Origin: a virus
Lineage: Duplodnaviria; Caudoviricetes
DNA: 33,312 bases
Reading direction: 5' to 3' (one strand)
IMG/VR virus record: IMGVR_UViG_3300033407_000083
Span: 1 to 33,312 of that record
Every line of letters begins with the position of its first letter. The stretch's first letter is position 1. Under the pieces are notes generated by a model. The model saw nothing but the letters and a program-made list of their open reading frames with translations. It had not been told where the DNA came from and ran no database searches. A program made the position numbers and the translations under genes. This document shows, one piece after another, positions 3,033 through 33,312 of the stretch.

Positions 3033-3034
3033 TC

Positions 3035-6000: not shown

Positions 6001-6001
6001 G

Positions 6002-8600: not shown

Positions 8601-8689
8601 TTCGCTGCCGCTCCCTGCGCCGCTTCGCTTCTCCCATCCCCAGTTGTTCCATACCCTTGGTCTTCTTCGTACCTTCGTGGTTCAAAGTT

Positions 8690-10294
8690 CTACGGCTGCG
8701 CCGTCGCCTCCATGTACGCCTCCAGGCTCACCCCCAGATCCGCCGCCGAGCTGGCCGTCGCCACCTGGATGGTCAGCCGGTCCCCGACCGCGAAGCTGAC
8801 GTCGATCAGGTCCGAGGTATCGGTGAACGCCGCGCTGGCGATGTTGATGGCGTTGGCGTCCGCCGCGAACACGCTCGCCCCATTCTTTTTGATCTGCACC
8901 ACGCAGCTTCCGCCGGAGGGCGCGGTGACCACCCGCCCCCGCGCCCGCCGCAAGCGCATGGCGAAGGATAGATCGAGGTCCGCCACCAGCAGTCCGTCGG
9001 TCAGCGTGCCGGTCCTTACGAACGTCTGCTGCCAGGGGATCACTTCCCCCGTGCCGACCAGGTGCGATAGTTTCCATGCGGCCCGTGCGATTTCCTGCCA
9101 GGTGCTTCCGCCGTTGTTTCGCAGCAGCAGCCATTTGCCAGCCTCATCGAGCAACAAGCTTCGTCCGCTGACCGCCAGTTCAATGTTCACCCCGCCCACT
9201 TCGGAAGAGTCGATCACCGTGATCTGCGAAGTGGATTGCCGTTCGATCAATAGCAGATCGCCGTCCGCACCGCCCACGATCTCCGCCAGGTCGTCGAATA
9301 CGCCGCTTTCCGCCAGCACCTTGTGAGTGGAGTGCGTCGGGGTGATGGCCCCGCTGGCAATCTGGAGCACGGAACCGAGCTTCAGGTTAAGCTTTTTTAC
9401 GTTGATGATAGATCGCTCATTGGCATCCACGTCCTGCTGGAGGGTCTTGGGGCTGTTGAAGTTGCGGCTCAGTTCCACCCACTGCGTCGCGTTGTGTTGC
9501 ATCAACACGATGAACTTGTCCACGTCGTCCAGGACCAGGTCCCCGTCCTTGATTCTGATGTTCCCCGTGCTCTTGACCGTCACCACCCGCGCCGCGTTCT
9601 CCACGCGGAGGAAGAGCAATCGCCCGATCTTCGCCGCGTCGGCGGTGATCGTGACCAGGTTGTCGCTCGCCGCATCGGCCTCCGTATCCAAGCGGTGCAG
9701 CGCCTGCGTCGGCGTGATCGTATCCGCCGCCAGGGTCAGTTCGGTGAAGTCCTTGAAGCGCAGATCGGCGACGTTCTTGAGGGCGAAGCTGTTCACGTCC
9801 ACGTCGCTGCCCGCCTGCACGCTCGACCAGGCGTTGACGATGCCGATCAGATAATTGTGCATCCGCGCGTCGATCAGCGCCGTGATGTCGCTTCCGCTGG
9901 TGGTCGCCTTGGCCAGCCGCAGATGATCGCCCGCCGGCCACGCCGTGGTGCTGATCTTCAGCGTCTGGTCCGCGTCCAGGTACAGGTAATTCACCGCGCT
10001 GGCGGTCAGCGCTTGCGTGGCGGTTCCCGCGAAGCTCTTCTCCGTGGCCCCAATGCGGTACTCGCAGGCGAAGACCCCGACGTTGAGTCCGCCCAGGTCG
10101 ATCACCATCCCCCCGATTCGCCCCAGCGTGGCCATCAGTTGCGCGAGTTGCTGCATGACCCGCGTGTAGTGCGTCGGGGTGGTGGCGTCGTTGGCGTTCT
10201 TCAGCAGATGGCGGATGCCGGTGGCGGCGTCGACCACGCCGCTCAGGGCGTCCGCCTCCGCCGCCGTGATGTCCGGATAAATCGGGTTGCTCAT
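8690..10294 (-). CDS. Tail fibre-like protein with tandem repeated domain (534 aa)
   Basis: Two related units ELTLAADTITPTQALHRLDTE...WVELSR and VLQIASGAITPTHSTHKVLAE...WQEIAR; C-terminal beta-sandwich-like segment. Confidence 0.7.
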   Translation of the reverse strand: MSNPIYPDITAAEADALSGVVDAATGIRHLLKNANDATTPTHYTRVMQQLAQLMATLGRIGGMVIDLGGLNVGVFACEYRIGATEKSFAGTATQALTASAVNYLYLDADQTLKISTTAWPAGDHLRLAKATTSGSDITALIDARMHNYLIGIVNAWSSVQAGSDVDVNSFALKNVADLRFKDFTELTLAADTITPTQALHRLDTEADAASDNLVTITADAAKIGRLLFLRVENAARVVTVKSTGNIRIKDGDLVLDDVDKFIVLMQHNATQWVELSRNFNSPKTLQQDVDANERSIINVKKLNLKLGSVLQIASGAITPTHSTHKVLAESGVFDDLAEIVGGADGDLLLIERQSTSQITVIDSSEVGGVNIELAVSGRSLLLDEAGKWLLLRNNGGSTWQEIARAAWKLSHLVGTGEVIPWQQTFVRTGTLTDGLLVADLDLSFAMRLRRARGRVVTAPSGGSCVVQIKKNGASVFAADANAINIASAAFTDTSDLIDVSFAVGDRLTIQVATASSAADLGVSLEAYMEATAQP

Positions 10295-10300
10295 GGCCTT

Positions 10301-10340
10301 CTCGACGCTCCTTCAAACGCCCTTCGAACGATCCTCGAAT
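10301..10340 (+). repeat. Second copy of the 11-bp-phased YTCRA array
   Basis: CTCGACG(10301), TTCAAAC(10312), TTCGAAC(10323), CTCGAAT(10334). Confidence 0.5.
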
Positions 10341-10376
10341 CGCTCGTCATCGAATTCATAATCTTGGCGTTTCGCC

Positions 10377-10871
10377 TCATTCCGTGTTTCTCTCGAACGC
10401 GAACACCGCCTGGTCGTTCACCGCGTCGTAACTCTCCAGTTCAAACCTCGACAGCGTCGGCGGTTCCGTGGCGGCGACGAACACCGCGATCTCCGGCAGC
10501 GTCCCGCCCTGGGCGTTGCCCGCCGCATCCACGATCTGCCCCGCGAACTTGTGCATCGCGTAGGCCGCCGGCAGGTGGACGGTAACGTCCACGTAGCGGA
10601 TGAATTCCGTCATCCCCTTCCCAAACGGCTGCCTGCCGAACATCTCACTGAGCCGCGTTGGCGGCCGCCCCGTGGGAAACGTCCCGCGCAGCCCCTGTCC
10701 CCCGAAGTCCTTCGTCCGCGTCACGATCGCCTCAAACAGCGCCGCGGGCCGCGCCAGCAGCGGCCGGGCGAGGTCGATCGTCCCGTCCCCGAAGTCGCTG
10801 TAGACTTGCAGCCCGTCGCCCGCGTCGGCCCCTTCGGGGATCGGAATTCGTAATTCCACGGGGACCAGCAT
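10377..10871 (-). CDS. Hypothetical tail protein (164 aa)
   Basis: ORF directly after the 799-aa gene, same strand. Confidence 0.7.
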   Translation of the reverse strand: MLVPVELRIPIPEGADAGDGLQVYSDFGDGTIDLARPLLARPAALFEAIVTRTKDFGGQGLRGTFPTGRPPTRLSEMFGRQPFGKGMTEFIRYVDVTVHLPAAYAMHKFAGQIVDAAGNAQGGTLPEIAVFVAATEPPTLSRFELESYDAVNDQAVFAFERNTE

Positions 10872-10877
10872 CGCCGT

Positions 10878-13277
10878 CTACTCCGCGCCTTCCTCGGGCG
10901 CATGCCGCAGGTCCGTCAGGTGCATCACCGTCCGGTATCCCGCTCGGGGGTCCTTCATCCACTCGATCGAAACGCACGTCGGCCAACTGCGAAAGTCGAT
11001 GCCCAGTCCCGACACCCCGCGAAACGAATCCCCGATGCGCACGTCCGTCTTGATGTAGGGCGCTTCCCACGATCCCGCGACCTTGACGGCGTCCATCAGC
11101 GCCCGCGCCCGATCGGCGAAGTCGTGCAGCTCCACCGTGTCCTCCCGCGTCTCGTAATTCGGATCGGGATCGACGGGCATGGCGTTCAGGGCGCTGTTCT
11201 GCCCGCGACGGCTGCACAGGACGAACTGCTCGAAGCCCAGGTCGATCACCCTGGCCCGCGCCCGCTGGAGCACTGCGCTCGACGGCGCCGGCGCGTAACG
11301 CAGCCGCCGGTCCCCGCGCACCGTGCAGGTGATCCGCACGAACAGGTGCGGAGCGCGAAACTCGCCCGTCTCGAAATCGATGCCCAGGTACGCGGAGAGG
11401 TAGTTGTTTTCTTCGTCTTCGCCCGGCGGGCGGAGCTTCGCCGACTTCCACAGGTTGTCTTCCTTGATCCACAGCGCCGCCCGCTCCTTGTCGAGGACCG
11501 GCGTGCCCGTGAAGGGGATCCAATTGGGGTCGGCCAGCGCCGTGAAGGGATCGACGGCCGTGAAGTTGATCTCCATTCGCGGCGTCCGCTCCGTCGTGCT
11601 CGGGTTGATCCGCGCGATGAGCTCTCCGAACGGGCGGCGGTGCAGGACCCAGTCGGCGACTTCCGACACCGGAATGTCCCCGCCGATCTCGCCGTCCACG
11701 TAGATGAGCTTGTCGATCGTCCCTTCAAAGAGATACGGACTGTAGAACTGCGGACTGGCCCAGGGTCCCGTGTTGCGTGCAAACGGCGAATTTTCCACGC
11801 TCGAAAATCCCGTCTCCGGATCGACGTCCATGTACTCGAGCGTGTCCGGAAAGACCCACAGCCGCCCCACGTCGGCGTAGCGATGATGTTCCGGATGCCG
11901 CGTGTCGTAGACGCTGAGCACGATTTCGCCCGAGTCATCATCCTCTTCCTCGGCGAACTGCTCTTCCCAAAACGTTTTAGCCGCCTGCGCCTGGCCGTCG
12001 CTCAGCATGTCGTCGAGGTTGGGGTCCGGCTTCCATCCCGGACGCAGAAGCAACGAGCACTCCCAGTCCCGCGCCCCCGCGAGAAACACCGGGGCGTTGA
12101 TCGCCCGATCGTCAATCGCCAGTTGGCTCTGCCGCGCTTCGTTGCGCAGAGCGATGTCCCACGCCGTCAGCCCCTGGTAATTCGAGAAGGGCCGATCGCG
12201 GGGAATGTCCAGCGCTCGCGGCGCGGCCATCATCCGCTCCCGGGTGGCGGTTTCCTCGGCGAGCGTTACGATCTCGGCGAACACGCGCAGGAAGTATTCC
12301 GGATCGTTCGATTCCGGCTTGTTTCGCACCGCGATTTCAAAGTGCAGCCCCGCCCCCCTGCACAGCGCCGCGATCGCTTCCCGCGCGTTCATCGACGCCA
12401 CGGCCGCGTGCTCGATCCGTTGCACGTTCCGCCGGGCGAAGGGATCGTCCGGGCTTCCTCCCTCCAGACCGACGTAAGCGTCCGTATCCAGCAGGAAGTC
12501 ATCGACGCTGACCCCCGCCTTGACCGCGTAGTGATAGGCCACGTAGCGCAGGGCGTCGGCCGCGTTCCAGAACTTCGCACGGGGATCGCCGTCCGCGGTG
12601 AACGCGAAAATCCGGTGGGTCCCCGACTTGCCCTCCGTTCGCGGAAATGTCAGCGCGTAGTCCAGCCGGTTGGGCTTGCCCTCCGCGTTGAACACCGGCG
12701 GAAGGGCGTCCACCTCCACCAGGTCGTCGCTTTGCACCGTCGCCGGATCACGGAAGGGGTATTTCCGCATCAGCCGTCCGCTGATCTGGCATTGCGGATC
12801 GCTCGCCAGCCGTTCCTCGCCCTCCGCGATCGCCGCCAGGGTGATCGCCTGGTGCCGTTCGCTCCACGACGCCGTCCGCGACAGGGCGTAGCCCTGGAAG
12901 AGGATGATCGGCGGGTCGGCCCCGCGGGGCATGGCGACGCGCACGCGGCGGTCGGGGTGCAGTTGATCCAGTAGTTGGCTGAGGTGTTCGGCGCCGATGC
13001 TCGCTGCGGCGTCCAGCTTGTCCGCGTCCAGGGCGCGGACGATCAACGCCGCCTTCGTCTCCGTGCCGTCCATTCCCCGCGCCACCGACTCCCAGTCCAC
13101 GCGCTCCGCGAGCTGGAAAATTCCGCTTCCCGTCGCCGTCTCGATGTAGACGTGGACCGCGGGCGGATCGAATGAAAATCCGCTGGGCACCGTGCCCGCC
13201 GGAAAGGCGCGGTTCAGGCTGTTGCGCTCCGCGCGTCCGATGCCCTTGCTCAGGATGGTCGTTATCAGCGGCGGCAT
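10878..13277 (-). CDS. Putative baseplate hub/central tail protein (799 aa)
   Basis: Large ORF two genes after the tape measure; hub-like N-terminus (HPDRRVRV...ILFQGY) and C-terminal GD...V.SIEW...YRT pattern. Confidence 0.65.
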   Translation of the reverse strand: MPPLITTILSKGIGRAERNSLNRAFPAGTVPSGFSFDPPAVHVYIETATGSGIFQLAERVDWESVARGMDGTETKAALIVRALDADKLDAAASIGAEHLSQLLDQLHPDRRVRVAMPRGADPPIILFQGYALSRTASWSERHQAITLAAIAEGEERLASDPQCQISGRLMRKYPFRDPATVQSDDLVEVDALPPVFNAEGKPNRLDYALTFPRTEGKSGTHRIFAFTADGDPRAKFWNAADALRYVAYHYAVKAGVSVDDFLLDTDAYVGLEGGSPDDPFARRNVQRIEHAAVASMNAREAIAALCRGAGLHFEIAVRNKPESNDPEYFLRVFAEIVTLAEETATRERMMAAPRALDIPRDRPFSNYQGLTAWDIALRNEARQSQLAIDDRAINAPVFLAGARDWECSLLLRPGWKPDPNLDDMLSDGQAQAAKTFWEEQFAEEEDDDSGEIVLSVYDTRHPEHHRYADVGRLWVFPDTLEYMDVDPETGFSSVENSPFARNTGPWASPQFYSPYLFEGTIDKLIYVDGEIGGDIPVSEVADWVLHRRPFGELIARINPSTTERTPRMEINFTAVDPFTALADPNWIPFTGTPVLDKERAALWIKEDNLWKSAKLRPPGEDEENNYLSAYLGIDFETGEFRAPHLFVRITCTVRGDRRLRYAPAPSSAVLQRARARVIDLGFEQFVLCSRRGQNSALNAMPVDPDPNYETREDTVELHDFADRARALMDAVKVAGSWEAPYIKTDVRIGDSFRGVSGLGIDFRSWPTCVSIEWMKDPRAGYRTVMHLTDLRHAPEEGAE

Positions 13278-13290
13278 CGTTCAAAAGAAT

Positions 13291-13371
13291 TCAGAAGACA
13301 GAATACAGGAGTCAGAATGACATCCCGCAGTCTTTACTCTTCTGTCTCCTGTCTCCTGTCTCCTGTCTTCT
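13291..13371. repeat. Inverted pair of heptamer arrays: (CAGRAKA)n ... (TCCTGTC)n
   Basis: TCAGAAGACAGAATACAGGAGTCAGAAT (13291-13318) faces TTCTGTCTCCTGTCTCCTGTCTCCTGTCTTCT (13340-13371). Confidence 0.8.
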
Positions 13372-13372
13372 C

Positions 13373-13864
13373 TTACCCCAGCCTCTTGAACACGATCCGC
13401 ACCTTCGGATGGATCAGCGTGTAGGGCGCCGAGTTGTGCAGGGTGAACACCTCGCCCATGCTGAAGTCCTCGAGCACTGCCTGCTCGCTCAGGATCGTTC
13501 CGAAGGCGTTGGTCAATCTCGTCGCCCGCATCTGTCTGGGGTCCGGCGGGTCGAGCACGCCGTTCGTCCGGCTGCTGCCGTGTTTGTACCGGTTCAGTTC
13601 GCCGACGATCGCCGCCCGCACGTCTTCCGTGCTCGTCTTCAGGCTCCCTTGCCAGACCACCCGACCCGAGGTGAACCCCAGCCGGTCTTCGTAGGCCACG
13701 TTTTGTTGCACCACCGCCTGGTCCACCCGCGTCGCCTCGTCGGCCCCCTCGATCACCTTCAACGTGAACCGCGCCGTGTTCTCCGCGTATCGCTCCGACC
13801 CCGGCTGCCCGGCGTCGAGCTCATCCACTCCGTTGGTCCCTCCAAATTGCGGCGTCGCGCTCAC
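13373..13864 (-). CDS. Putative distal tail (Dit-position) protein (163 aa)
   Basis: Immediately follows the tape measure gene. Confidence 0.6.
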   Translation of the reverse strand: MSATPQFGGTNGVDELDAGQPGSERYAENTARFTLKVIEGADEATRVDQAVVQQNVAYEDRLGFTSGRVVWQGSLKTSTEDVRAAIVGELNRYKHGSSRTNGVLDPPDPRQMRATRLTNAFGTILSEQAVLEDFSMGEVFTLHNSAPYTLIHPKVRIVFKRLG

Positions 13865-13906
13865 AGCGTTCCGATCTCAAACCTTAGATTTCAAATCTCA
13901 AATTCG

Positions 13907-15337: not shown

Positions 15338-15380
15338 CGCAATACTCGAAACCGGAAACTAGAAACTCGACCTCCGTTCA

Positions 15381-16307: not shown

Positions 16308-16346
16308 TGCATTCTCCTTCGTGCGCCGCTCAGCGCTCTATTGCCC

Positions 16347-16862: not shown

Positions 16863-16918
16863 GTCGCTCCGCTCCGCTGAAATCTCAAATCTGAAATCTC
16901 AAATTTGAGATTTGCCAT

Positions 16919-17572: not shown

Positions 17573-17578
17573 TTTTCG

Positions 17579-17659
17579 TTCACCACCAAGTCACCCTCTG
17601 AAATCTCTAATCTCAAATTTCAAATCCTCTTCTTCGTGCCTTCGTGTCTTCGTGGTTAA
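17579..17659. repeat. Nested repeat: TTCACCACCAAG / CTTCGTG arms enclosing an AAATCTC array
   Basis: TTCACCACCAAGTCACC (17579), AAATCTC-type array (17599-17626), TCTTCGTGCCTTCGTGTCTTCGTGGTTAA (17631-17659); same layout at 26042-26101. Confidence 0.75.
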
Positions 17660-18090: not shown

Positions 18091-18095
18091 CGCCG

Positions 18096-18118
18096 TGTGC
18101 CACTGCTCGCAAGCAGTG
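18096..18118 (+). repeat. REP-like 23-bp palindrome TGTGCCACTGCTCGCAAGCAGTG, copy 1 of 3
   Basis: Identical copies at 18096, 25324 and 32528; CACTGCT/AGCAGTG stem. Confidence 0.85.
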
Positions 18119-18186
18119 CTCCGTCGTCCGCTCGGGATCTCCGTTCCTGGCTCTCAAATCTCAAATTTGAAATCTGAGATTCGTCA

Positions 18187-19176: not shown

Positions 19177-19274
19177 TTTTTCGGCTCCTTCCGAATGCGT
19201 CCGCGGGCTCCATCCCGCGCCGCCGGTTTCCTGGTTTCCGTTGTCCGTCCGTTACTTCGTCGCCCGGCCTCGGC

Positions 19275-20386: not shown

Positions 20387-20950
20387 GGCTTTCTCCTGTG
20401 TAAGAGGTCTCTGGCCGGCGGCCAGCTCCATGTTCACGTCTTTCGCCGCGAGTTTCTGCATGCTGTCCTGAATCGCGGGTTTATTGGTGAGCGCCGCGGA
20501 ATGCAGCGCGACGGCCTTCGCATCACTCTTCCGCACGACCAACACCGGCGACAGCCAGCGGTACTCGTCGTTGCGGATCATGTCCCGCGCCTGATTGTTC
20601 CACTTCACCAATCCGAAGATCCCCACGCCCGGCGTTGCACTTACAGTGGTGATCCATCCGGCGGCGGGCGCCGCGCCCGACGGCGTACCGTAGCGTCCTC
20701 CCATCGTGGCGTGCTCAAAGTCGATGGGCAGATCCCGCCCCTCTTTGGCGAAGGCTTCACTGATGAGCCGCGCCGATTCCTCATCAACCGTGAAATCTCC
20801 CATGAGACTGCGCACCAGTCCCCACGGCGCGAGCATGACGCGAATGAGGCCGTCTCCCTCCTTGGGGGTGCACACCACCATACGGATCCCCATATCGCCC
20901 GCCCCTGAATGGCTCCGCCGATCCGTCGTCTCTGTGTCGCCCTGCGTCAT
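19733..20950 (-). CDS. Mu-like prohead protease I with C-terminal scaffold (405 aa)
   Basis: DLPIDFEH, APAAGWI, VKWN, EYRWLSPV, LHSAALTNKPA motifs; start moved to MTQGD because the ORF-track extension is repeat-derived. Confidence 0.9.
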   Translation of the reverse strand: MTQGDTETTDRRSHSGAGDMGIRMVVCTPKEGDGLIRVMLAPWGLVRSLMGDFTVDEESARLISEAFAKEGRDLPIDFEHATMGGRYGTPSGAAPAAGWITTVSATPGVGIFGLVKWNNQARDMIRNDEYRWLSPVLVVRKSDAKAVALHSAALTNKPAIQDSMQKLAAKDVNMELAAGQRPLTQEKAMNELLLIGKDLGLAEADCKVETIVNKIGELKERAKPAPETAKAVLVANAARKALGLKDDADASAVEVAINSHKQAKDAAGTQATELATLKEKFAEREADDLMRPYITANKINPNATEDVRVCRNLAKSDPETFKKLMAERPALVEPGRTTPPAGGAKTGSSKEEELIANAVKEHKGDYGAAMAELQLELKQPYLLQGLTNRAANARCAEQFPTIFAV

Positions 20951-21032
20951 CTGGGATCCCTCTTCGTGACTTCGTGGTTCAACACTCTGAAATCTCAAAT
21001 CTCAAATTCGCCTTCTTCGTGCCCTTCGTGGT

Positions 21033-21737: not shown

Positions 21738-21742
21738 TCACT

Positions 21743-22033
21743 CTAGTTTCCAGTCTCCAGTTTCTTGTCTCTGTGCACCGCCGTCGTTCGTCCGATCAGT
21801 GCGCTCTGCACCATCGCTCCCGCCGCCGCCTCGCCCACCGCGTCCAGGTCCATGCGCCTAAGCAGTTCCCCGCCAAGGCTCCTCTTCGCGTCCTCTGCGT
21901 CCTCCGCTGATTCGACCGCCTCCAGCAGCGGTCCGATGACTCCGTCGCGATAGCGCCCGACCATCCTCCGCACCGCCTTGCGGTTCATCCGCTCCAGGTG
22001 CCCCAGCACTTGCCTTTGACTACGTAGCGCCAT
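21743..22033 (-). CDS. Small ORF resembling the C-terminal domain of DUF935-type portals (96 aa)
   Basis: PLLEAVESAEDAEDAKRSL...MDLDAVGEAAAGAMVQSALIGR resembles Mu-type portal C-termini. Confidence 0.6.
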   Translation of the reverse strand: MALRSQRQVLGHLERMNRKAVRRMVGRYRDGVIGPLLEAVESAEDAEDAKRSLGGELLRRMDLDAVGEAAAGAMVQSALIGRTTAVHRDKKLETGN

Positions 22034-22098
22034 TGACCAATCTCAAATCCGGAATCTCAAATCCCAGATTCTCTTCGTGGCTCGCTCTTTGCCGTTCG

Positions 22099-23427
22099 TC
22101 ATTCGTCATTCGCCGGCAGTTCCTCTTCCGGCGCCGCGCCTTCGGGCGCGAACGCATCGCTCGGTTCCAGCACTTCCTCGTCTTCATCCGGCTCCGGGAT
22201 GTTCAGCCGGTCATAGGCCCACTTTTTCGGGATAGCGATCCCCGCGGTCTGCGCCGCCTTCATGGCCTGCGCTTCCTTGATCCGGTCCACCGTCTCCGGC
22301 TTGATCCGCCGGAAGATCGGCAGCTTCGCGCCCCGCCCGGGAAACTTGAATTCCACCATCGGAGCGATGATCTGTTCGCGCACCGTCCTTGATTCGCGCC
22401 TGATGTCGTCATCGCGCAGATCATCACGCACGTCGTCTTGCACCTTCGCCGATGCGAAGGTTCCGGTCCCGCCCGTGGTGTCGCCGGTGAGGTTGCCCCC
22501 CAGCCACAGCACGGCCTGTTCCCGATCGCAGTAGTTGACGATCGCCTCGAACGGCGCGACTCCCCGCTGGCTGGTCTCCGTGAACTCGATCGACGTGGCC
22601 TCGCTCACCATCGCCCACGCCGCCGCCCCGATGTTGGCCAGCATGTCCGTCAGCACCCGCTTTTCCTCGGGCGTCGCCGCCGGTCGGTATTTGCCCACCC
22701 GGATGGGCATGCCGAAAATCTCGCAGAACGTGGCCCAGTCCGCGATCGCCAGCTTCTTGATGAGCCAGATGGTCGCCTGCGCCATGGACAGGCTCTTGAG
22801 CAGCGGGCTTCCGCTCACCGCGTGCGGCGTGTGCACGATGAACTTCACTCCGCTCATCTCCATGCCCAGCCGCTGTTGTTCGGTGATGATCCGTACGGCG
22901 GGCGATTGGTTGAGGTCCATCGTCAGGCGTTGGGTGGGGACCTCGAAGATCGCAATCGGGCGGGAGGATTCCCATTCCATTTCGCAGACCGCCAGGTTCG
23001 GCCCGATCGCCGTGGCCAGGTGTTCGAGCGCCGCAGGGAATCCATCGAGGGCGTCCAGTGTTTCCCGCACGTAATCGGCGGCTTCCTCGGCCAGCTTCTC
23101 GTCGGCCGTGTCCGTCACTTCCCCCGCCGAGACGATCTCGTATTCGAGTCCGGTCAGCGCCATGCGCCGTTTTTCGGCGTTGCTCTTCAACCGTGGGTCG
23201 ACTTGCTCCATCTCCTCGAAGAGCAGCATGGCTTCCGTAATGTATCCGTCGCGAGCGCCTTGCAGCACGGCGTTGATTCGGCTGAAGGTGATTTGATTCG
23301 TTTGCGCGGCGCGGTAACTGTCCAGCGTCCGCGACCAGGCGTAGACCCGCCCTTCCGGCGCCCGCCCGCGCAGGGCGTCCGCCGCGCTCCTCACCCGGTT
23401 AACGATCGTGTTCAGCCTCGCGCCCAT
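22099..23427 (-). CDS. Portal protein (Mu gp29/DUF935-like, 442 aa)
   Basis: LFEEMEQVD, DWATFCEIFGMPIRVGKY, LGGNLT motifs; follows TerL. Confidence 0.92.
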   Translation of the reverse strand: MGARLNTIVNRVRSAADALRGRAPEGRVYAWSRTLDSYRAAQTNQITFSRINAVLQGARDGYITEAMLLFEEMEQVDPRLKSNAEKRRMALTGLEYEIVSAGEVTDTADEKLAEEAADYVRETLDALDGFPAALEHLATAIGPNLAVCEMEWESSRPIAIFEVPTQRLTMDLNQSPAVRIITEQQRLGMEMSGVKFIVHTPHAVSGSPLLKSLSMAQATIWLIKKLAIADWATFCEIFGMPIRVGKYRPAATPEEKRVLTDMLANIGAAAWAMVSEATSIEFTETSQRGVAPFEAIVNYCDREQAVLWLGGNLTGDTTGGTGTFASAKVQDDVRDDLRDDDIRRESRTVREQIIAPMVEFKFPGRGAKLPIFRRIKPETVDRIKEAQAMKAAQTAGIAIPKKWAYDRLNIPEPDEDEEVLEPSDAFAPEGAAPEEELPANDE

Positions 23428-23452
23428 AGTCCCCTGATCTCAAATCTGATAT

Positions 23453-25274: not shown

Positions 25275-25323
25275 TCATTCGCTCTTCGTGCCTTCGTGGC
25301 TCATTCCGCATTCGCTCTTCACG

Positions 25324-25346
25324 TGTGCCACTGCTCGCAAGCAGTG
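25324..25346 (+). repeat. REP-like 23-bp palindrome, copy 2 of 3
   Basis: Identical to 18096-18118. Confidence 0.85.
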
Positions 25347-25357
25347 CCGCTTCGCGG

Positions 25358-26018: not shown

Positions 26019-26104
26019 TCACTGCGCTCCGCTCCAAAACATTCACCACCAGGTCACCGCCTCTGAAATCTCAAATCTCAAACTGGCGTCTTCGTGGTTG
26101 ACGT

Positions 26105-26572
26105 TCAAACCTCCGCCCACGCCGTCTGCCGTGCGCCGTCGAACAGTGTCCCCTGTTCGGTGTTCCGTTCCCGAGCCGCCGTTCCCATATCCCTCACCAT
26201 CGCGAACTCGAACCGTGCATTCGCCTTGCGGCTCTCCAGATAGTCATGCCACTCCGCGTCGTCCCGCGCCAGCCAATACCCAAGCTCCGCTGGAGGGTGG
26301 AACAGTGGATCAGTGGATGCTTCCCTCTCCTGTCTCCTGTCTCCTGTCTCCTCTCTTCGGACCCCTGCGACGATTCTCCATCCTTCATCTCGCAGTTCCG
26401 CGATCAGTTCCCGCACTCGTCGCCGTTTGGTCTCGTGGCTCTGGCGTACCCAGTAGTGCATGTCCACGATCCCGCACGCCGCCGCGATTTCGATGGCCGA
26501 CAGCGGTCGCCGGCAACAGCCTTTCAGCGCCGTCAGCGCCGCCTGTTTTCTGGCTTCGAACACCGCGCTCAT
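26105..26572 (-). CDS. Winged-HTH DNA-binding protein with an in-frame repeat insertion (155 aa)
   Basis: LSAIEIA...RRVRELIAELRDEGWRI...GYWLA; ATGA coupling at 26569-26572. Confidence 0.75.
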   Translation of the reverse strand: MSAVFEARKQAALTALKGCCRRPLSAIEIAAACGIVDMHYWVRQSHETKRRRVRELIAELRDEGWRIVAGVRREETGDRRQEREASTDPLFHPPAELGYWLARDDAEWHDYLESRKANARFEFAMVRDMGTAARERNTEQGTLFDGARQTAWAEV

Positions 26573-26775
26573 CGCTTTCCCTTGGTGGTTCCCTCGATGC
26601 TCAGTTCCGATCCGTCCAATGCGTCTCGATAGCGCAGCTTGCACGCCGCGCAGCCCCATATCTTCGCAAGGTAGTAGTCCGCGTCGCACAACTTCCGTCC
26701 GGGCCGCGTCTCCGCCCCGCGGGGCTTGAGTTTCCGTCCGCATCCCGGGCACTTCGGTGGATCGTCATCCCGCAT
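26569..26775 (-). CDS. Zinc-ribbon protein (68 aa)
   Basis: CPGC...CAAC; coupled to next gene. Confidence 0.6.
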   Translation of the reverse strand: MRDDDPPKCPGCGRKLKPRGAETRPGRKLCDADYYLAKIWGCAACKLRYRDALDGSELSIEGTTKGKR

Positions 26776-26875
26776 TGCTTCGCTCGCTCCGCTCGCTTCG
26801 CGAGAGAGGAGAACAGTGGATCAGGCGAGCAGTTGATTCTGTTCTCCTGTCTACTGTCTCCTCTCCAGCGGAGAC

Positions 26876-27355
26876 TCATTCGCCGCTCGCCAGCTTCATC
26901 ACTTCCCCGCTCAGTTGGATCGCGCGTCGCGCCTCCGCGTTGCTCTGCTTCTCGGCTTCCCGTCCCATGCGCCACGGGCGCAGGACCAGCATGTAAAACA
27001 GCCCGCCGCCGATCACGCACACCACTACCGCGCCGAGCAGCCCGACCAGTCCCGCGGCCAGAATCCACGCCGTGACGCTGTCTCCGCCCCCGCCGATGCG
27101 TGCATTGCCTCCCGCGATTCCCCCTATGTGTTCCAGTCGCGTATCCCTGCCGGACACTCCGGCGACGTCCCGTGCCTGCACATCCGACCGGCTCTCCACG
27201 CTCACGGCGGCATTCCGGTCCTCGATTCTCACAGTTCCCGCGTCCGCCGTTGCCATAGGATCGTGTTTTTGTGTGGCAATGCAGGAAGGGACTGATCCAC
27301 AGATGACGCAGATTGCCACATAAAAGGTTAAGTTCTTTGTGAACTCTATGAACAT
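26876..27355 (-). CDS. Putative lipoprotein with C-terminal TM, u-spanin-like topology (159 aa)
   Basis: Hydrophobic N-terminus with Cys (ICVICGSVPSC), beta-rich middle, TM AWILAAGLVGLLGAVVVCVIGGGLFYMLVL, basic tail; lysis-cassette position. Confidence 0.55.
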   Translation of the reverse strand: MFIEFTKNLTFYVAICVICGSVPSCIATQKHDPMATADAGTVRIEDRNAAVSVESRSDVQARDVAGVSGRDTRLEHIGGIAGGNARIGGGGDSVTAWILAAGLVGLLGAVVVCVIGGGLFYMLVLRPWRMGREAEKQSNAEARRAIQLSGEVMKLASGE

Positions 27356-27454
27356 GCGGAGGTTACTTTCTCTCGCCATTTACCATATACCTTATGTGAA
27401 TTCTGCGCTCTCTGTGGATCAGCCGTTCTTTGAAATCTGGAATCTCAAATCTCT

Positions 27455-27865
27455 TTACGGCCCCCCCGGCGTCGCCGCGCGGTTCCAGCCCAGGATCGTC
27501 AGGATCGCCGTCCTCTGCTCGTCGCTGATGGGGCCGTCGAGTTGCCTGAGCAGCGTCTCGCGCGTGCCCGCCGGCAGCCGCGTGGAATCCCCGTGTCCCC
27601 GGGCGATGATATTGCCGTTGATCCCCCTCGCCCGCACGCCCGAGGCGAACGTCGCGGAGACATAGCTTTCCAGGCCGGGATCCTGCACGTGGCCGTCCGC
27701 GTCCATCATCCAGTCCTGCAACACCCCTTCGTCCTGGATTTTCCTTGCCAGCGTCTGGGCGCTGTCCGCCATGGCGTTTTCCAGCCGTTGCCCCGGCATC
27801 TGGCACCCCGCCCCCAAGATCAGCAGCCATCCCAAGACCAATCCGATAAAAATCTTCCAGTTCAT
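27455..27865 (-). CDS. Lipoprotein, first gene of the late operon (136 aa)
   Basis: MNWKIFIGLVLGWLLILGAG-C lipobox; AAGGA SD. Confidence 0.75.
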   Translation of the reverse strand: MNWKIFIGLVLGWLLILGAGCQMPGQRLENAMADSAQTLARKIQDEGVLQDWMMDADGHVQDPGLESYVSATFASGVRARGINGNIIARGHGDSTRLPAGTRETLLRQLDGPISDEQRTAILTILGWNRAATPGGP

Positions 27866-27876
27866 CCGATCCTTCC

Positions 27877-28401
27877 TTTCTACGTTTCTACGTTTCCGCG
27901 TTTCCTTCGTGGTCAAGTAGTTCGAAAAGTGTGGGGCGGTCGCATCCTCCCTGATCCGCCCGCCCCGCGGCCGGCCGACTCTGCCGTTGGTCTCGCCGGT
28001 TCTTGTTGTCGTGCCCTTGTCCGAACCCGGAGCGCAAGCGACGGGCCGCGCCTTCCAGTTTCCAGTCTCTTGTCTCTGGAAAGGGGGTCCGCCGGGCCGG
28101 GTTGGCGCTCCCGGCCACGGCGGATGAGGTAAGGAAAATGTAGGCCGTGCCAAACAGAGCCGCGACCGTGAGGGAGCGGTTCCGCTCGGCGGATGAATGA
28201 GATCGTGCCAAACAGAGCCGCGACCGTGAGGGAGCGGTTCCGCTCGGCGGATGAATGAGGCCGTGCCCGGCCGGGGGGTCGGAGTCGCCCCGACCGGGCT
28301 TTGGAGGGGGAATAACTTTGGTCCACGCGCCAAACAGAGCCGCGACCGTGAGGGAGCGGTTAGTCGCCGTCCCTCTGCGTTAATCTGCGTAATCTGTGGA
28401 T
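27877..28401. repeat. Mosaic of REP-like palindromes and short tandem arrays, including a 58-bp-period duplication
   Basis: AACAGAGCCGCGACCGTGAGGGAGCGGTT at 28153, 28211, 28333; 28146-28201 duplicated at 28204-28259; plus several other motif types. Confidence 0.85.
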
Positions 28402-28478
28402 CGTTCGGCATCCGTGCCGCTCCGCGCTCATCCGTACCGCGACAGGTATGGAGCGGTCCGTGCTCCAACCGGCGCAAC

Positions 28479-28518
28479 AAAAAACCCGATGCAGCTCATT
28501 CCGAGCCACACCGGGTTT
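28479..28518 (-). terminator. Intrinsic terminator between the late-leader promoter/repressor and the late operon
   Basis: Minus-strand RNA CCCGGUGUGGCUC-GGAAU-GAGCUGCAUCGGG-UUUUUU: 13-bp stem fully paired only on this strand (3 G-U pairs), then U6. Confidence 0.85.
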
Positions 28519-28530
28519 GTATCCTTGGCG

Positions 28531-28542
28531 CGCGCTACGACC
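28531..28542 (-). promoter_or_regulatory. ops-like element
   Basis: GGTCGTAGCGCG matches ops GGCGGTAGCGTG at 9/12 positions, about 15 nt before the terminator stem. Confidence 0.35.
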
Positions 28543-28624
28543 GACCGGTCATGCCCGCGCGATACACCCTAGTTTTGCGGAGATCAAAGGCTTTGCGGCG
28601 GGATTGTCCCGCTCACGGGCGCAT

Positions 28625-28653
28625 CATCTAACCGATCCCGAACCGCCTGTCAA
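28625..28653 (-). promoter_or_regulatory. Candidate sigma70-type late-leader promoter
   Basis: TTGACA (28653-28648), 17 nt, TAGATG (28630-28625); -10 is weak. Confidence 0.5.
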
Positions 28654-28666
28654 ATGGAATCTGGAA

Positions 28667-29434
28667 TTATTTTTTGGACTCCTTTCTCTCCGGTGCGGCC
28701 TCTTTGCCGGCCTGCCGTCGCTGCTCTGCCTCTTCCGTCCGCTCTTTGGCGTACTCCCGTTCGTCCGCATCCATTGCCTCGACCCAAGATTTCCGCTTCC
28801 CTCCGCTTTGGTTCTTTGCCTGTCCTTCCCATAAGTCGATGAGGACCACTGCCAACCGCTCGCTCAGATAGTCCTTGACTCGGTCACCGGAGAAATCCGG
28901 CGCCCTTGGTTCCATCACCGCCGGTTGCTGCACCCGAAAGAAGCAAATCGCCTCATCCAGCGTGAATTGTCCTTCGTCGATCGCCGTGGCCAGCGAAACG
29001 CACATGCTCCTTATATGTAGGCTCTGCATCTGATGCGACAGGGTGAGCGCCGTCAACATGCGTTGCACGGTCAGCCCGGACCGCCACCGCTCTTCTTCCA
29101 TGGTTTCGATCACCGACTTGGGCAGCGCCTGCCTCAGAACCGCGATCAGCGCCCGATCGACTCCTATGCCCGCCACCGCATACGAAAACGCCGCATCCCG
29201 ATCCGCCGAGGGCGGCGGCGTCACAGTTTCAATGTCCACTTGCAGCAATGTTGCCAACGCGACCGCCCGCGCGGGAGGGATCGGCTGCGTGCCCCGCTCA
29301 TACGTACTAATAGTCTGCCCGGAGACGCCCAGCTTCGCTGCCAATGTTTCCTGCGTCATCTCCTTGCGAACGCGGGCTTCTCGAAGTCGGGCTCCGAAGT
29401 CCTTCAGCCACTCGATTTCCATGCCCCTATTCAT
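28667..29434 (-). CDS. XRE-family HTH prophage repressor (about 255 aa; start uncertain, 29422-29500)
   Basis: FGARLREARVRKEMTQETLAAKLGVSGQTISTYERG HTH; divergent from the early operon. Confidence 0.85.
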   Translation of the reverse strand: MNRGMEIEWLKDFGARLREARVRKEMTQETLAAKLGVSGQTISTYERGTQPIPPARAVALATLLQVDIETVTPPPSADRDAAFSYAVAGIGVDRALIAVLRQALPKSVIETMEEERWRSGLTVQRMLTALTLSHQMQSLHIRSMCVSLATAIDEGQFTLDEAICFFRVQQPAVMEPRAPDFSGDRVKDYLSERLAVVLIDLWEGQAKNQSGGKRKSWVEAMDADEREYAKERTEEAEQRRQAGKEAAPERKESKK

Positions 29435-29454
29435 ACCAATTCCCCTTGTTCCAA

Positions 29455-29501
29455 GAAAATTCATATTTTCCGCTTGACTCGCTTGAATCATGTGATACAC
29501 T
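29455..29501 (+). promoter_or_regulatory. Early promoter with adjacent palindromic operator candidate
   Basis: TTGACT (29474-29479), 16 nt, TGn-TACACT (29496-29501); GAAAAT-TCAT-ATTTTC palindrome at 29455-29470; AT-rich divergent region. Confidence 0.6.
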
Positions 29502-29637
29502 TCACTCTGAAGTTAGGAGTCTGCTGTGGTCCTCAACCTGATTGAAACAACGAAATGCGCGGAGGCGGGGTTCCTTCCATTTGGACCATGCGAAGACTCC
29601 GCCCCGCCTCCCGCATACTTTTCAAGGAGATCTTCGC

Positions 29638-30288
29638 ATGAAGGGAATCGCTCCTAACCCCCCGCCCATCGTGGCCGAGGCCGAGTACGACCAGGATCAA
29701 CTCGTCCAGGCCATCTTCAACGCCGCCCTCCGGGACAACTTCGCCGTCGGCCGTTACGCCCTGCAATGGTGCGAGCGTTATTCCCGTGGTCGCACTGACG
29801 CCGCGTTGGCCCAGCTCGTTAACGATATAAATCCAGACGGTGAAGTAACTGGCGATTTTGTTCGCGAGTGCAGGGTGGTCGCCAAGGAATTTCCGGCGCG
29901 CGTCATAAATCTGTCCTGGACCCATCACCGGGTCGCCCTTGAGCTCGACCGTTCCAACGCCCGCGAGTGGTTGGACAAGGCTGCCAAGGAGGAATGGTCC
30001 GTCCGCCAGTTGGAGCAGGCCATCCGCCGCAAGGTCTGTCCCGGCAAGGTCCGCTCTCCCAACCTCCAGCGCTCCATCAGCCTGGAATACGCCCACTTCC
30101 GCCGCCACGTCGAGGAGCTCTCCGATACCGCCAAGATTAGCGCCTGGATCAAGACCAGCCCCGACTTCCTCATCCACAACAAGGACTTCCTCAAGACCAA
30201 AATGGTCCATGTCCAAAAAAGCGCCCAGGTGATCCTCGACGCCCTCGCCGGCGTCCGTCGCGACCGCTCCGCGGGAAAGGAGGCGTAA
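29638..30288 (+). CDS. LmbU/DUF1016-N-like HTH DNA-binding protein (216 aa)
   Basis: AAGGAG SD; LSWTHHRVA...WLDKAAKEEWSVRQLEQAI motif. Confidence 0.7.
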   Translation: MKGIAPNPPPIVAEAEYDQDQLVQAIFNAALRDNFAVGRYALQWCERYSRGRTDAALAQLVNDINPDGEVTGDFVRECRVVAKEFPARVINLSWTHHRVALELDRSNAREWLDKAAKEEWSVRQLEQAIRRKVCPGKVRSPNLQRSISLEYAHFRRHVEELSDTAKISAWIKTSPDFLIHNKDFLKTKMVHVQKSAQVILDALAGVRRDRSAGKEA

Positions 30289-30598
30289 CCCGTGGCCGCA
30301 AAAACAACTCATTTGGCCGGCTTTCCGTTCGACGTCGTGCGCTTCGATCTCTGCCCGTCCGATGTGGACAAGGTCTTCAACATCTCCGAGTCCTTCCAGC
30401 GCGTCGCCCCTCGCGGCGCTGACGAACCAAGAGTGAATCCGCGGCACTCCGAGCCCGCGGAGATTAAAGGCTTTGGCCCGGATCGGGCGGGGCGGAGGAA
30501 CGAGAATCGGTCGGTCCATGAGCGACTGCGGTGCGTAGCGCCGCGGTCCTTAGTCGATGGCGCTCCCAGTGCGTTCGACTCCGATCGTTCGTCGTCTG

Positions 30599-30651
30599 GT
30601 TTCGACGTTTCGACGTTTTGACTTTTCGACGTTTCGACGTTTTGACGTTTC
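30599..30651 (+). repeat. Octamer tandem array (TTTYGACK)x6
   Basis: GTTTCGACGTTTCGACGTTTTGACTTTTCGACGTTTCGACGTTTTGACGTTTC; related TTTCTACG array at 27877-27904. Confidence 0.85.
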
Positions 30652-30678
30652 CTCCTGTCCCGTCCGCTCCTCGGCCTG

Positions 30679-30711
30679 CCTCTCCCCTTACCAAGGGGAG
30701 ACACAGAGGGG
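30679..30711. repeat. REP-like palindrome CCTCTCCCCTTACCAAGGGGAGACACAGAGGGG
   Basis: TCTCCCCTT-ACC-AAGGGGAGA hairpin. Confidence 0.7.
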
Positions 30712-30727
30712 TCGGCGTTTCGGAGTT

Positions 30728-31231
30728 TCACGACGATGGCTCGTTCATCCAAAACCGTTCCGCCCAGCAGCCCAGGTAGCGCCCGACGTCCGCGTCGCCG
30801 CCCCGCGAAAGCCACTCGGCGTAGCCGGAAGTCCACGCGAGTGACCGGATCAACGGCCAATCGACCTTCGAAACGTCTGCGGCTCGCAACGGCGCGTCGA
30901 TCCACGCGCGGAACTTTCTCCTCGATAGACGAACTGCGCCGGATGGTGGCGCGGAACAAATCCGAGAAGAAAGCCATTCCCAAAGCGCTTTTTGGTCATC
31001 CGTCGACCAACTGGAAAGCAACTCCCGCCGTTTCCAAAAGGGCGTCCGCAGCAGGCGACGGATCGGCAGCCGCCCCGCAATCATCGTCCCCAATATTTGA
31101 TCCGGTTCGATGGGATGATCCCCCAACCGGGCCATATCGGAGTCCATCCACAGTTCCCCGGCGAAGCTCGCCAGACAAGACCCATACGCCTCCGCCGGAA
31201 TCACCATCGTCCTCGGAAATTTGTCTTTCAT
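30728..31231 (-). CDS. Hypothetical Trp-rich protein antisense to the early operon (167 aa); competing plus-strand ORF 30736-31320
   Basis: More protein-like composition than the overlapping Arg/Ser-rich plus-strand ORF; strand not resolved. Confidence 0.4.
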   Translation of the reverse strand: MKDKFPRTMVIPAEAYGSCLASFAGELWMDSDMARLGDHPIEPDQILGTMIAGRLPIRRLLRTPFWKRRELLSSWSTDDQKALWEWLSSRICSAPPSGAVRLSRRKFRAWIDAPLRAADVSKVDWPLIRSLAWTSGYAEWLSRGGDADVGRYLGCWAERFWMNEPSS

Positions 31232-31409
31232 GCCCGCATGGTATGCGTGTCCTCATCGACTACCAGCCGGGCCTCGTTGTGATGACCCGTTCCGGAGACG
31301 TCTTGTTGCGGTTGTCGTGACTCAGAGCCCCGGCGTCCGCGCCGGGCGGCCTCTGGTTTGTAATCGAACTCCGGCGGCGGACCAACGGATTTCCGCCGCG
31401 TTTTCACCA

Positions 31410-31430
31410 GTAGGGCGGGCTCGGCCCGCC
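31410..31430 (+). repeat. GTAG-type REP-like hairpin
   Basis: GTAG then GGCGGGC-TCG-GCCCGCC stem-loop. Confidence 0.65.
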
Positions 31431-31447
31431 GTTAGGCAGGGACGCCG

Positions 31448-31969
31448 ATGGAAGACATGCGTTGCGACGTTGAACTGCTGAACGCCATGCTCAACGAGTC
31501 GCCCCACGTCCACGACGTGCACACCGATCGTTGGGTCTGTCTCAGCGCCAAGCAGCTCGCCGACTGGACCAATCGTTCGCTCCAGACCATCAGCGACTAC
31601 CGCACGGGCAAGACCAACATCCCCATCGAGTTCTGGCGGGCGGTTTTCAATCGCACCTGCGACCTGCGCGTCGTGGCCCTGCTGGTCCCCATCGACCTCT
31701 ACAACGTCGAGATCAATCCCAGGCAGGAGCGCGGTCCGGAGAGTCCGGGCGCCTTCTTCCGCGAGGCCCTCGTCGCGGAGTCCGAGTATCACGAGCAGGC
31801 CAAAGCTTTGTGCGAGATTCTCGCCGACGGCAAGATCGACGATCTCGACGCCCGCCGCGTGACCGCCTACGACGACGCCTACTGGCGTCATCGCGTCCGC
31901 GACGCCTCCTTGCACCGCGCCGTCCTCCGCCGATACAGCGATTACGCGGGAAGGCTCGGTGTCTCTTGA
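31448..31969 (+). CDS. Phage regulatory protein, CII(186/CP76)-like (173 aa)
   Basis: N-terminal HTH (SAKQLADWTNRSLQTISDY) and C-terminal ILADGKIDDLD motif. Confidence 0.65.
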   Translation: MEDMRCDVELLNAMLNESPHVHDVHTDRWVCLSAKQLADWTNRSLQTISDYRTGKTNIPIEFWRAVFNRTCDLRVVALLVPIDLYNVEINPRQERGPESPGAFFREALVAESEYHEQAKALCEILADGKIDDLDARRVTAYDDAYWRHRVRDASLHRAVLRRYSDYAGRLGVS

Positions 31970-32295
31970 CTCTTCGCGCCTGCGTCCTTGTCGCCGCCTT
32001 CTTCTTTGCGGCTCCGATGCTGAAACTCTTTTTTCTCTGCGTTCTCTGTGTCCTCTGCGGATGCGTCGTCTGGCGCTTCGCCGACCTGGTCGCGGGCGTT
32101 GATGAGATGAAGTGCGATCTCTCCTGCCCTTGCGGTCGTCGCACCATGAACAACGTGATCGCCGATCCCGCCCGTCGCCCGGCCATCGTCGATCTTCTCG
32201 CCCGCAACTGTCCCTGGTGCCTGTCCCATCGCGAGCCGCGAACTTCAGTTCGCGCGGACGCACCCGCCGATGGAGTCTCCCATGTTGACCCATGA
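31966..32295 (+). CDS. Membrane-anchored Zn-finger-like hypothetical protein (start TTG 31966 or ATG 32017)
   Basis: TTGA overlap; hydrophobic N-terminus; CPCG...CPWC. Confidence 0.55.
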   Translation: MTLRACVLVAAFFFAAPMLKLFFLCVLCVLCGCVVWRFADLVAGVDEMKCDLSCPCGRRTMNNVIADPARRPAIVDLLARNCPWCLSHREPRTSVRADAPADGVSHVDP

Positions 32296-32524
32296 ACTGC
32301 ACGAATGCCCCCGATGCGAATCGCCCGTCCCGCGCGAGGATTACGCCCGCGTGCGGATCGACGATCGCACCGACGAGTTTATGCACTGTCCGTTCTGCGG
32401 CTACGGCCTCGAGGTCTCGCGTTACTCCGACGGCGCCATCTACGTTCTCGATTATCAGGAGCGCACCGAGCCGGTGAACTTCGGCAGGTTTCTCCAGCGT
32501 TTGGAGGATGCTCGCGCCGCCTGA
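32282..32524 (+). CDS. Zinc-ribbon protein (80 aa)
   Basis: CPRC...CPFC; GGAG SD. Confidence 0.7.
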   Translation: MLTHELHECPRCESPVPREDYARVRIDDRTDEFMHCPFCGYGLEVSRYSDGAIYVLDYQERTEPVNFGRFLQRLEDARAA

Positions 32525-32527
32525 TTT

Positions 32528-32550
32528 TGTGCCACTGCTCGCAAGCAGTG
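32528..32550 (+). repeat. REP-like 23-bp palindrome, copy 3 of 3
   Basis: Identical to 18096-18118. Confidence 0.85.
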
Positions 32551-32589
32551 TTCGTTGTCGTCTTCGTGCCTTCGTGGTGAGTGTTGTTT

Positions 32590-33312
32590 GTGGCCGCAAT
32601 CGCCAATCGACAATCGGGAATCGACAATTCCGAGGACTGGCTTCCCCTCGACGAAGCCGCCGCCGAGCTGGCCGAACCGCTCCGCACCCTACAATGGCGT
32701 TGCAGATCGTCCCTCGCCAAACAGCACCAAGCCCACCTATCGCCTCCGCGCGACGGGCGTGGCAAGCCGGTCTGGTGGCTGCATCGCTCGATTGATCCGC
32801 GACTTTCCCGATCGCTCGATCCTCAGACCCGCGCCGATCAGCAGCGCCCCTCGCTGCTCGCGCGTCATGCCCAGCACCACGTCGAGCGTGCCTATAGAAA
32901 GGCCCGCTGGGTGGGGCATTGGCGCTCGATGCTTCATGACGTCCGCCCCGCGGGATTGACCGGCGCGGCGATAGCCGCCCGCGTCGTCGCCGAGGCCAAA
33001 CAGGTGGAGGGCGAGGATTTTCCCATCAGCGTCCGCTCTCTCTATTTGTGGAACGCCTCCATGACGGCGCGCGATGCGGAGGGCGCGATCCGCGGCGTCG
33101 AGGCCTTGGTCCCTCGTTACGGCGATGGCGGAGGCGGGCGCGACGTGCGCTCCCCGGAAGCCGTCGAGTTTTTCTACGAACTTTATCACTGTCAAAGCAA
33201 ACCCACGGTACGGACGTGCCACGAAGTGACACTGCGTAAGTCCCGCGCGAACGGTTGGACCTGGCCGACAAGCTACTCCGCGACGCGCAAGTGGCTTGCA
33301 GCTCACGACGAC
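32590..33312 (+). CDS. MuA-like transposase, N-terminal 241 codons (3' partial; absent from the ORF track)
   Basis: Open frame from GTG 32590 to the edge: DWLPLDEAAAEL HTH, ISVRSLYLW...GVEALVPRY (I-beta-like), FFYELYHCQSKPTVRTCH...GWTWPTSY (I-gamma-like). Confidence 0.85.
   Translation, partial: MAAIANRQSGIDNSEDWLPLDEAAAELAEPLRTLQWRCRSSLAKQHQAHLSPPRDGRGKPVWWLHRSIDPRLSRSLDPQTRADQQRPSLLARHAQHHVERAYRKARWVGHWRSMLHDVRPAGLTGAAIAARVVAEAKQVEGEDFPISVRSLYLWNASMTARDAEGAIRGVEALVPRYGDGGGGRDVRSPEAVEFFYELYHCQSKPTVRTCHEVTLRKSRANGWTWPTSYSATRKWLAAHDD

Follow-up and report, generated by a model that had tools for sequence, protein, structure and literature searches.

Short repeat arrays at the gene junctions of a Mu-like phage

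We analysed a linear viral contig of 33,312 bases (IMG/VR record IMGVR_UViG_3300033407_000083; the whole stretch is called the window below), in which tandem arrays of short degenerate words fill most gene junctions of a transposable phage. Almost every unpaired array has the same orientation on the DNA, in the early operon as in the late operon that diverges from it. Searches against PHROGs and Pfam placed a Mu-type transposase on the plus strand from 32581 to the contig end, a helix-turn-helix (HTH) repressor on the minus strand and, also on the minus strand, late genes for the large terminase, portal, gpF, protease, capsid, gp36 and neck proteins. A Mu-type transposase and head genes together mark a transposable (Mu-like) phage, and their opposite strands show that early genes diverge from late genes in the window, a layout also found in B3 and BcepMu.

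The array-bearing features of the late side are as follows. Names such as repetitive extragenic palindrome (REP), RAYT and Avd-like, and the hairpin family labels, are applied to these features on our own assumption.

8665-8684, plus: CTTCGTG array in the spacer 8601-8689 (word match)
13283-13370, no strand: two-armed CTGTCTC/GAGACAG hairpin filling the 13373/10878 junction (TRF; folding z -6.9)
13874-13903, plus: AAATCTC array after the 13907-15337 gene (word match, TRF)
15346-15370, minus: CAGTTTC-family array in reverse orientation, the sole unpaired exception in the window (family patterns)
16877-16914, plus: self-folding AAATCTC array; a box containing GGAG comes next on the mRNA (TRF, folding)
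17597-17654, plus: composite CTTCGTG and AAATCTC module at the gp36/neck junction, ordered as at 20962, 22039 and 26062
18094-18177, plus: REP-like hairpin (18094-18119) and AAATCTC array (18152-18177) at the major capsid protein/gp36 junction
20962-21032, plus: CTTCGTG-AAATCTC-CTTCGTG composite at the MuF/protease junction
21743-21770, plus: CAGTTTC array within the last codons of the 21743-22033 gene
22039-22112, plus: AAATCTC, CTTCGTGG and TTCGTCA arrays at the portal 3' end (TRF, periodicity detector)
23436-23450, plus: short degenerate AAATCTC array at the terL/portal junction (word match)
25283-25347, plus: CTTCGTG array and REP-like hairpin upstream of the gene in the small-terminase position
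26062-26098, plus: AAATCTC and CTTCGTGG composite
26297-26356, plus: in-frame CTGTCTC array inserted in the conserved gene 26105-26572 (minus), within a loop that varies
26839-26865, plus: CTGTCTC array in the spacer 26776-26875
27292-27453, no strand: GxxExxY-type two-armed hairpin (27292-27422) and AAATCTC array (folding z -8.5)
27877-28402, plus: TTTCTACG, CTTCGTGG, CAGTTTC and ATCTGCG arrays in the late leader, together with a 58-nt REP-like hairpin in three copies (TRF, folding)

On the early side we found the following.

28667-29422, minus: repressor-like HTH gene, to the right of which the early operon diverges
30599-30651, plus: TTTCGACG array in the early region, on the same DNA strand as the late arrays (TRF, periodicity detector)
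31411-31435, no strand: 25-nt REP-like hairpin, which the relative L007 lacks at the corresponding site (pairwise alignment)
32033-32059, plus: CTCTGCG 9-mer array in frame in the hydrophobic N-terminus of the early gene 31966-32295
32528-32628, plus: REP-like hairpin, CTTCGTG array and AATCG array (TRF)
32581-33312, plus: Mu-type transposase, cut by the contig end (PHROGs/Pfam)

An earlier, sequence-only reading of this DNA had listed orphan arrays of several word families at its gene junctions, and the word it gave was present at every position. The word AATCTCAAAT matched the window 12 times (11 plus, 1 minus) against 0.02 matches expected, and CTTCGTGNCTTCGTG, with at most one mismatch, 6 times, always on the plus strand, against 0.03. 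A word-blind detector of 7-, 8- and 10-base periodicity returned 14 arrays, against 0.97 ± 0.91 (maximum 3) in 30 codon-block shuffles, and Tandem Repeats Finder (TRF) agreed with array detection in the window; an Rfam search of the window gave no match. Genes were called from open reading frames (ORFs), a codon model and tblastn, small genes being uncertain. Between cI and the 10878-13277 gene, arrays occupy 15 of the 21 called junctions, or 15 of 18 once overlapping ones are excluded. The block 258-8600 is free of arrays, as had been stated (0 of 9 junctions filled), yet 8 of its 9 gaps are 12 nt or shorter.

Most listed arrays lie at junctions, whereas those at 26326, 27400, 32033, 21743 and probably 32597 fall within reading frames. 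The list had also missed the reverse array at about 15346-15370 and the REP-like hairpins at 18094, 25322, 32528, 28146-28383 and 31411. The arrays at 13340 and 27400 are arms of two-armed hairpins (folding z -6.9 and -8.5), a layout seen at 13283 and 27292; most other window arrays are single-armed, and the AAATCTC word partly folds on itself. Four junctions (17597, 20962, 22039 and 26062) share one composite CTTCGTG/AAATCTC module. A composite-word search in viral contigs gave no match.

Unpaired arrays follow the DNA strand across divergent operons

For strand polarity, we drew the word list from 39 hairpins outside the clade, applied it to 21 clade sequences and set aside 31 paired arrays. 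Unpaired arrays stood as first arms on the late-sense strand in ratios of 20:1 in early, 46:6 in middle and 66:12 in late regions, with 2, 12 and 30 unpaired arrays unclassified, respectively. Sorted by predicted gene strand, the ratios were 14:1 beside or inside minus-strand genes and 84:5 for plus-strand genes; hand-written family patterns, picked after the data had been seen, gave 24:3 and 163:8. Exact 15-mers common to distant sites were direct in 273 cases and inverted in 28 (69:11 for early regions against the rest), and six REP-like patterns gave 61:3 overall. In the relative G003, whose early operon, with transposase A and B, lies on the minus strand, all 12 copies of one 8-mer family lie on the late-sense strand, five of them in the early operon and several in frame in the middle of early and late genes. 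By inspection, some reverse exceptions are from families that also occur as hairpins in the genome concerned. In other phages with the GGGACGAA word, genes are mostly co-oriented, so that strand and transcript are inseparable there. The strand polarity and several in-frame arrays within genes are new findings of this work.

The silent-site G-C skew ranged from +0.14 to +0.48 in late-sense genes and from -0.18 to -0.49 in opposite genes in eight of eight genomes, and the GC skew of the window keeps one sign throughout; together these constitute a replication-type asymmetry, from which we infer that replication of this clade would be one-directional. Seed abundance fails to explain the bias, because the seed word GATTG is balanced in early genes (23:27) whereas its arrays are not (11:0). 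Base composition was rejected as the sole cause of polarity, since the GATTGNC, GAATTAC and AAAGTTC families, with little purine or G excess, are equally polarised.

The words are first arms of bacterial hairpin elements

The words had been described as orphans, which they are not: they equal the first arms of hairpin elements in bacterial chromosomes. Words of the CCACGAAG/CACAGAG type lie upstream of 13 of 26 Bacteroidota GxxExxY genes and their complements downstream of 12, against 5 and 5 for the opposite placement and 4 and 3 of 156 control stretches, which bears out the link to GxxExxY genes that the sequence-only reading had suggested. The CCACGAAG arrays keep the conserved outer end found at GxxExxY cassettes, and in the complete chromosome G041 the word of the window occurs at 16 places, where one pair encloses a GxxExxY gene. 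The suggested link to four-helix-bundle genes has at most partial support. GAGATTT and GAGACAG are first arms of chromosomal hairpins in Bacteroidota, and a four-helix-bundle gene adjoins 1 of 14 AAATCTC sites and 0 of 7 CTGTCTC sites in these chromosomes; CCACGAAG/CACAGAG-type words were found at none of 10 Bacteroidota four-helix-bundle loci.

No cargo gene lies in the window, as had been claimed: TIGR02436 and the GxxExxY/four-helix-bundle searches gave no match there. TIGR02436 was likewise absent from the relatives G003 and G004. When 174 sequences (2.24 Mb), most of them from phages, were searched with profiles made from Bacteroidota proteins, no cargo gene turned up, and cargo-protein motifs gave chance matches only. 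GxxExxY genes were present in five viral loci, none of the window's clade. A viral contig, L243, has an intact GxxExxY gene between inverted arms (8001-8330), so that whole cassettes can enter viral records. The REP-like hairpins are multi-copy short palindromes with presence/absence differences, as in REP/RAYT elements; the Y1 transposase PF01797 had no match among 40 window ORFs.

Related phages have empty and differently filled sites

Terminase searches yielded 80 metagenome and 80 viral loci, about 20 of them syntenic with the window; an early-gene search returned only G003 and G004. Aligning these relatives, a check that the sequence-only reading had proposed, revealed empty and filled sites and bore out its idea of a repeat-deposition process. 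At the same junctions, relatives carry other families (among them GAATTAC, GAAAGTT, GAGAAGT, GACGATT, GAAGGAT and GGGACGAA), REP-like hairpins or nothing. Stop and start codons overlap by one base at four junctions of L028, and the gaps in L012, L027, L029 and L030 measure 1-6 nt. Pairwise alignments showed one-unit length changes and clean hairpin insertions, and each phage reuses its own repeat families. Most close relatives have 3-17 arrays per 10 kb, compared with 0-2 per 20 kb in Bacteroidota samples, which are not the host, and many distant Mu-like terminase loci have none. The GC skew is weakest in L028 and L012 (0.066 and 0.078, against 0.11-0.17 in most others), the two relatives poorest in arrays. 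Contigs from a run of a second study were identical to the window across four array clusters, leaving X1, a possible source, out of the count, so the arrays are stable within a strain.

Origin of the arrays and of their polarity

The arrays are a real feature, a phage-borne and strand-locked form of known but unexplained short-repeat hairpin elements. For their origin we favour, at about even odds of being right, a reading in which they derive from bacterial hairpin elements (of GxxExxY, REP-like and, likely, four-helix-bundle type) as arms that carry no gene, keep one strand orientation at variable sites of the clade and probably spread by same-strand copying during phage replication. The arrays share words with chromosomal first arms, and composite modules recur among window junctions; same-strand copying among replicating phage copies fits the single module shared by four of them. 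The first copies would come from the host. If replicative transposition proceeded mostly from one end, the same strand would always be exposed, and nascent 3' ends could mis-pair with short matches in existing same-strand arrays, copy a few units and return. Insertions would survive only where a stop meets a start codon, or in frame where a loop or terminus tolerates them. On late mRNA, purine-rich arms may have been tolerated, which would have fixed the founding orientation, and some arms could later have come to serve as start codons, as ribosome-binding sites or as hydrophobic segments.

Several observations weigh against same-strand copying. A more distant terminase group is less polarised (37:13 at co-oriented junctions), the early counts come from seven genomes that have sites in common, which leaves about 13 distinct sites against 2-3, and the REP-like hairpins reach only about 6:3 in early regions. 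The identity of the second-study contigs means that no event was seen in progress. In G041, whose origin lies near 2.2-2.3 Mb by skew and dnaA, hand counts of three families gave about 22 leading and 32 lagging unpaired arms, without a mirrored bias between the two replichores, and a ratio of 13:11 with respect to mRNA. Xanthomonas repeats are likewise described, in the available part of the source, as having no leading/lagging preference (PMC4692102). Fork direction alone therefore does not orient the arms, and the polarity needs something phage-specific. Replication of Mu probably begins mainly at one end. A paper on Mu says, in its accessible text, only that a fork forms at each end (PMC3334882), and the accessible text of a second leaves one-directional replication unmentioned (PMC10052514). 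The ACGTTG family of G041 favours the plus strand in both replichores (43 against 11 matches; control 10 against 5).

It is rather unlikely that the arrays are instead fresh deposits, made on one fork strand by proteins coded by host elements (a GxxExxY nuclease, an Avd-like four-helix bundle perhaps with a reverse transcriptase, or RAYT) and often aborted after the first arm. We know of no biochemical activity of GxxExxY or Avd-like proteins. Such deposition would suit the cassette-type outer end of the CCACGAAG arrays, the 61:3 ratio of the REP-like copies and their clean insertions, and IS200/IS605 HUH elements are indeed oriented by the lagging-strand template, as far as the available text of two sources goes (PMC3971601, PMC6006769). 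It fits poorly with the lack of cargo genes in the 174 sequences, the unbiased replichores of G041 and the composite modules common to junctions of one phage. A bolder and equally doubtful proposal is that a widespread, hitherto undescribed DNA-writing system (a GxxExxY nuclease and/or an Avd-like protein, perhaps with a reverse transcriptase) pastes short tandem words on one fork strand, that its polarity is preserved in transposable phages because these replicate from one end, and that the words become ribosome-binding sites, start codons and membrane segments; if true, this would explain the bacterial heptamer repeats.

We consider it improbable that insertions arise in both orientations and that selection keeps the one that makes late mRNA rich in purines and early mRNA rich in pyrimidines (for instance, to avoid Rho late and to allow Rho-sensitive silencing early). 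The silent-site skew has the same sense and many first arms are purine-rich, but the equal polarity of GATTGNC, GAATTAC and AAAGTTC runs counter to it, and selection on each insert of 20-40 nt would have to be strong.

We give still less credence to an RNA-level code for gene-by-gene expression (processing sites, S1 or ribosome-binding enhancers, protein-binding sites, possibly early-late antisense pairing). The sequence-only reading had offered such a cis-code, and it would account for the 15 of 18 filled junctions and for inserts that end in GGAG or provide a start codon. Precedents, each from a source available in part, are a translational role proposed for TAACTGA repeats (PMC4679880) and an rRNA intervening sequence whose heptamer arms are cut by RNase III (PMC4990558). 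Against the code stand words that, at a given junction, change between relatives or are missing, empty sites in relatives, in-frame copies in the middle of genes and the single-armed state of most window arrays. The mRNA sense flips between operons while the orientation follows the DNA strand and not the transcript, and this strand-locked orientation argues against a gene-by-gene RNA code. Because the clade separates transcription from DNA strand and has matched empty and filled sites, it allows a direct test of DNA- against RNA-level models, which currently favours the former.

Ordinary slippage microsatellites of independent local origin are very improbable: one-unit differences between close relatives, and a G003 insert that starts and ends in a local 8-nt match, are what slippage would leave, but a small set of words, always with the same outer end, returns in phages and bacteria alike and is identical to chromosomal hairpin arms, units within an array differ by family-typical variants, and many Mu-like loci have no arrays.

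Arrays read as protein and translation signals

In essential genes of the phage, repeats have become part of the protein sequence or of the signals for its translation. In 12 aligned relatives the loop holding the 26326 insert is shorter, and L007 has a different 9-mer there. The 32033 array encodes part of a hydrophobic N-terminus, one arm of the 27292-27422 hairpin is likely translated as the hydrophobic, signal-like N-terminus of 26876-27379 (minus), and the AATCG array at 32597 probably lies within the transposase N-terminus, as in four relatives. In both 26876-27379 (minus) and 31966-32295 (plus), 9-mer arm words become hydrophobic Cys/Val/Leu/Ile segments, giving signal-like and membrane-like N-termini, and the L007 gene matching 31966-32295 has the same arm-derived segment. 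A GGAGCG-AGCGAC box, likely a ribosome-binding module, recurs at insert ends just before the start codon (late junctions of L009, L011, L019 and L021; window 16863-16876). The protease start codon apparently lies within a degenerate CACAGA-type arm, both in the window (20925-20955) and in L007 (about 12375-12420), where the protease N-terminus and MuF C-terminus seem duplicated around a repeat-rich junction (11576-12400). A rule placing first arms after stops and second arms before starts was rejected, since late first arms also occur before starts and in mid-gene, and early second arms in mid-gene.

Relation to known repeat systems

The origin of bacterial 7- to 9-base repeats is a long-standing open question; similar bacterial short repeats are known as short tandemly repeated repetitive (STRR) sequences. 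Heptamer repeats of Xanthomonas (GGGAATC) and Nostoc (PMC4692102) and of Beggiatoaceae (TAACTGA; PMC4679880) resemble the arrays, in the accessible text of these papers, in their degenerate 7- to 9-base units, 2-7 copies, mostly intergenic position, frequent inverted pairs and fast turnover. These are chromosomal and single-family, with no leading/lagging preference in Xanthomonas and a forward orientation to start codons in Beggiatoaceae, whereas in the window many families share phage sites and are locked to one strand across divergent operons. The arms of GxxExxY (TIGR04256) and four-helix-bundle (TIGR02436/S23p) elements, including rRNA intervening sequences (PMC4990558, available in part), share the words, the outer end and the hairpin layout at 13283 and 27292; unlike these cassettes, the arrays of the window and its clade have no cargo gene, are mostly single arms and lie outside rRNA. 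REP/REPIN elements of RAYT/TnpA-REP and IS200/IS605 (PMC6006769, PMC3971601, both available in part) are also short, multi-copy, intergenic hairpins with clean insertions and strand bias, but no Y1 transposase gene was seen in the window and tandem arrays are not palindromic REPs. With named transposable phages (KS10 being the capsid relative) the window shares the transposase, Mu-type portal, protease, gpF, gp36 and host DNA past the end, although its capsid is only 28% identical and the junction plugs are absent from most distant terminase loci. A literature search that missed most subscription papers found nothing on these repeats in phages or on a tie to GxxExxY/TIGR02436.

Phage end, host and neighbouring genes

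The left edge of the window comprises two features.

1-98, minus: non-phage flank with an open frame that the phage end interrupts, presumably a redoxin-type host gene (called by eye)
99-175, no strand: right (late) phage end with two 12-nt direct repeats, laid out as at the G003 end

Bases 99-175 match the end of G003, and bases 1-98 form an unrelated open frame, for which an NCBIfam search gave no family match. The edge thus reads as a phage end joined to host DNA, seen at one end; the contig runs about 98 nt past the phage end, so this copy is integrated or packaged, and not necessarily one stable prophage. The terminase relatives with names (50-55% identity) carry Phycisphaerae/Planctomycetota labels, making this group the likely host. 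A portal search in species genomes returned two distant Bacteroidota loci and no planctomycete host.

The array-free tail/accessory block 258-8600 consists of overlapping or long opposite-frame ORFs, partly shared with G003 and without matches in a family search. The first early gene, 29638-30288 (plus), has weak ParB-HTH/DUF1016/LmbU-like matches and extremely C-ending codons; no match was found among the relatives examined. In G003, a truncated second transposase-like gene lies near the left end (L184 2023-2793, minus), and the early operon contains what looks by eye like a RecQ-like helicase gene (L184 3475-4971, minus) that holds an in-frame 8-mer array.

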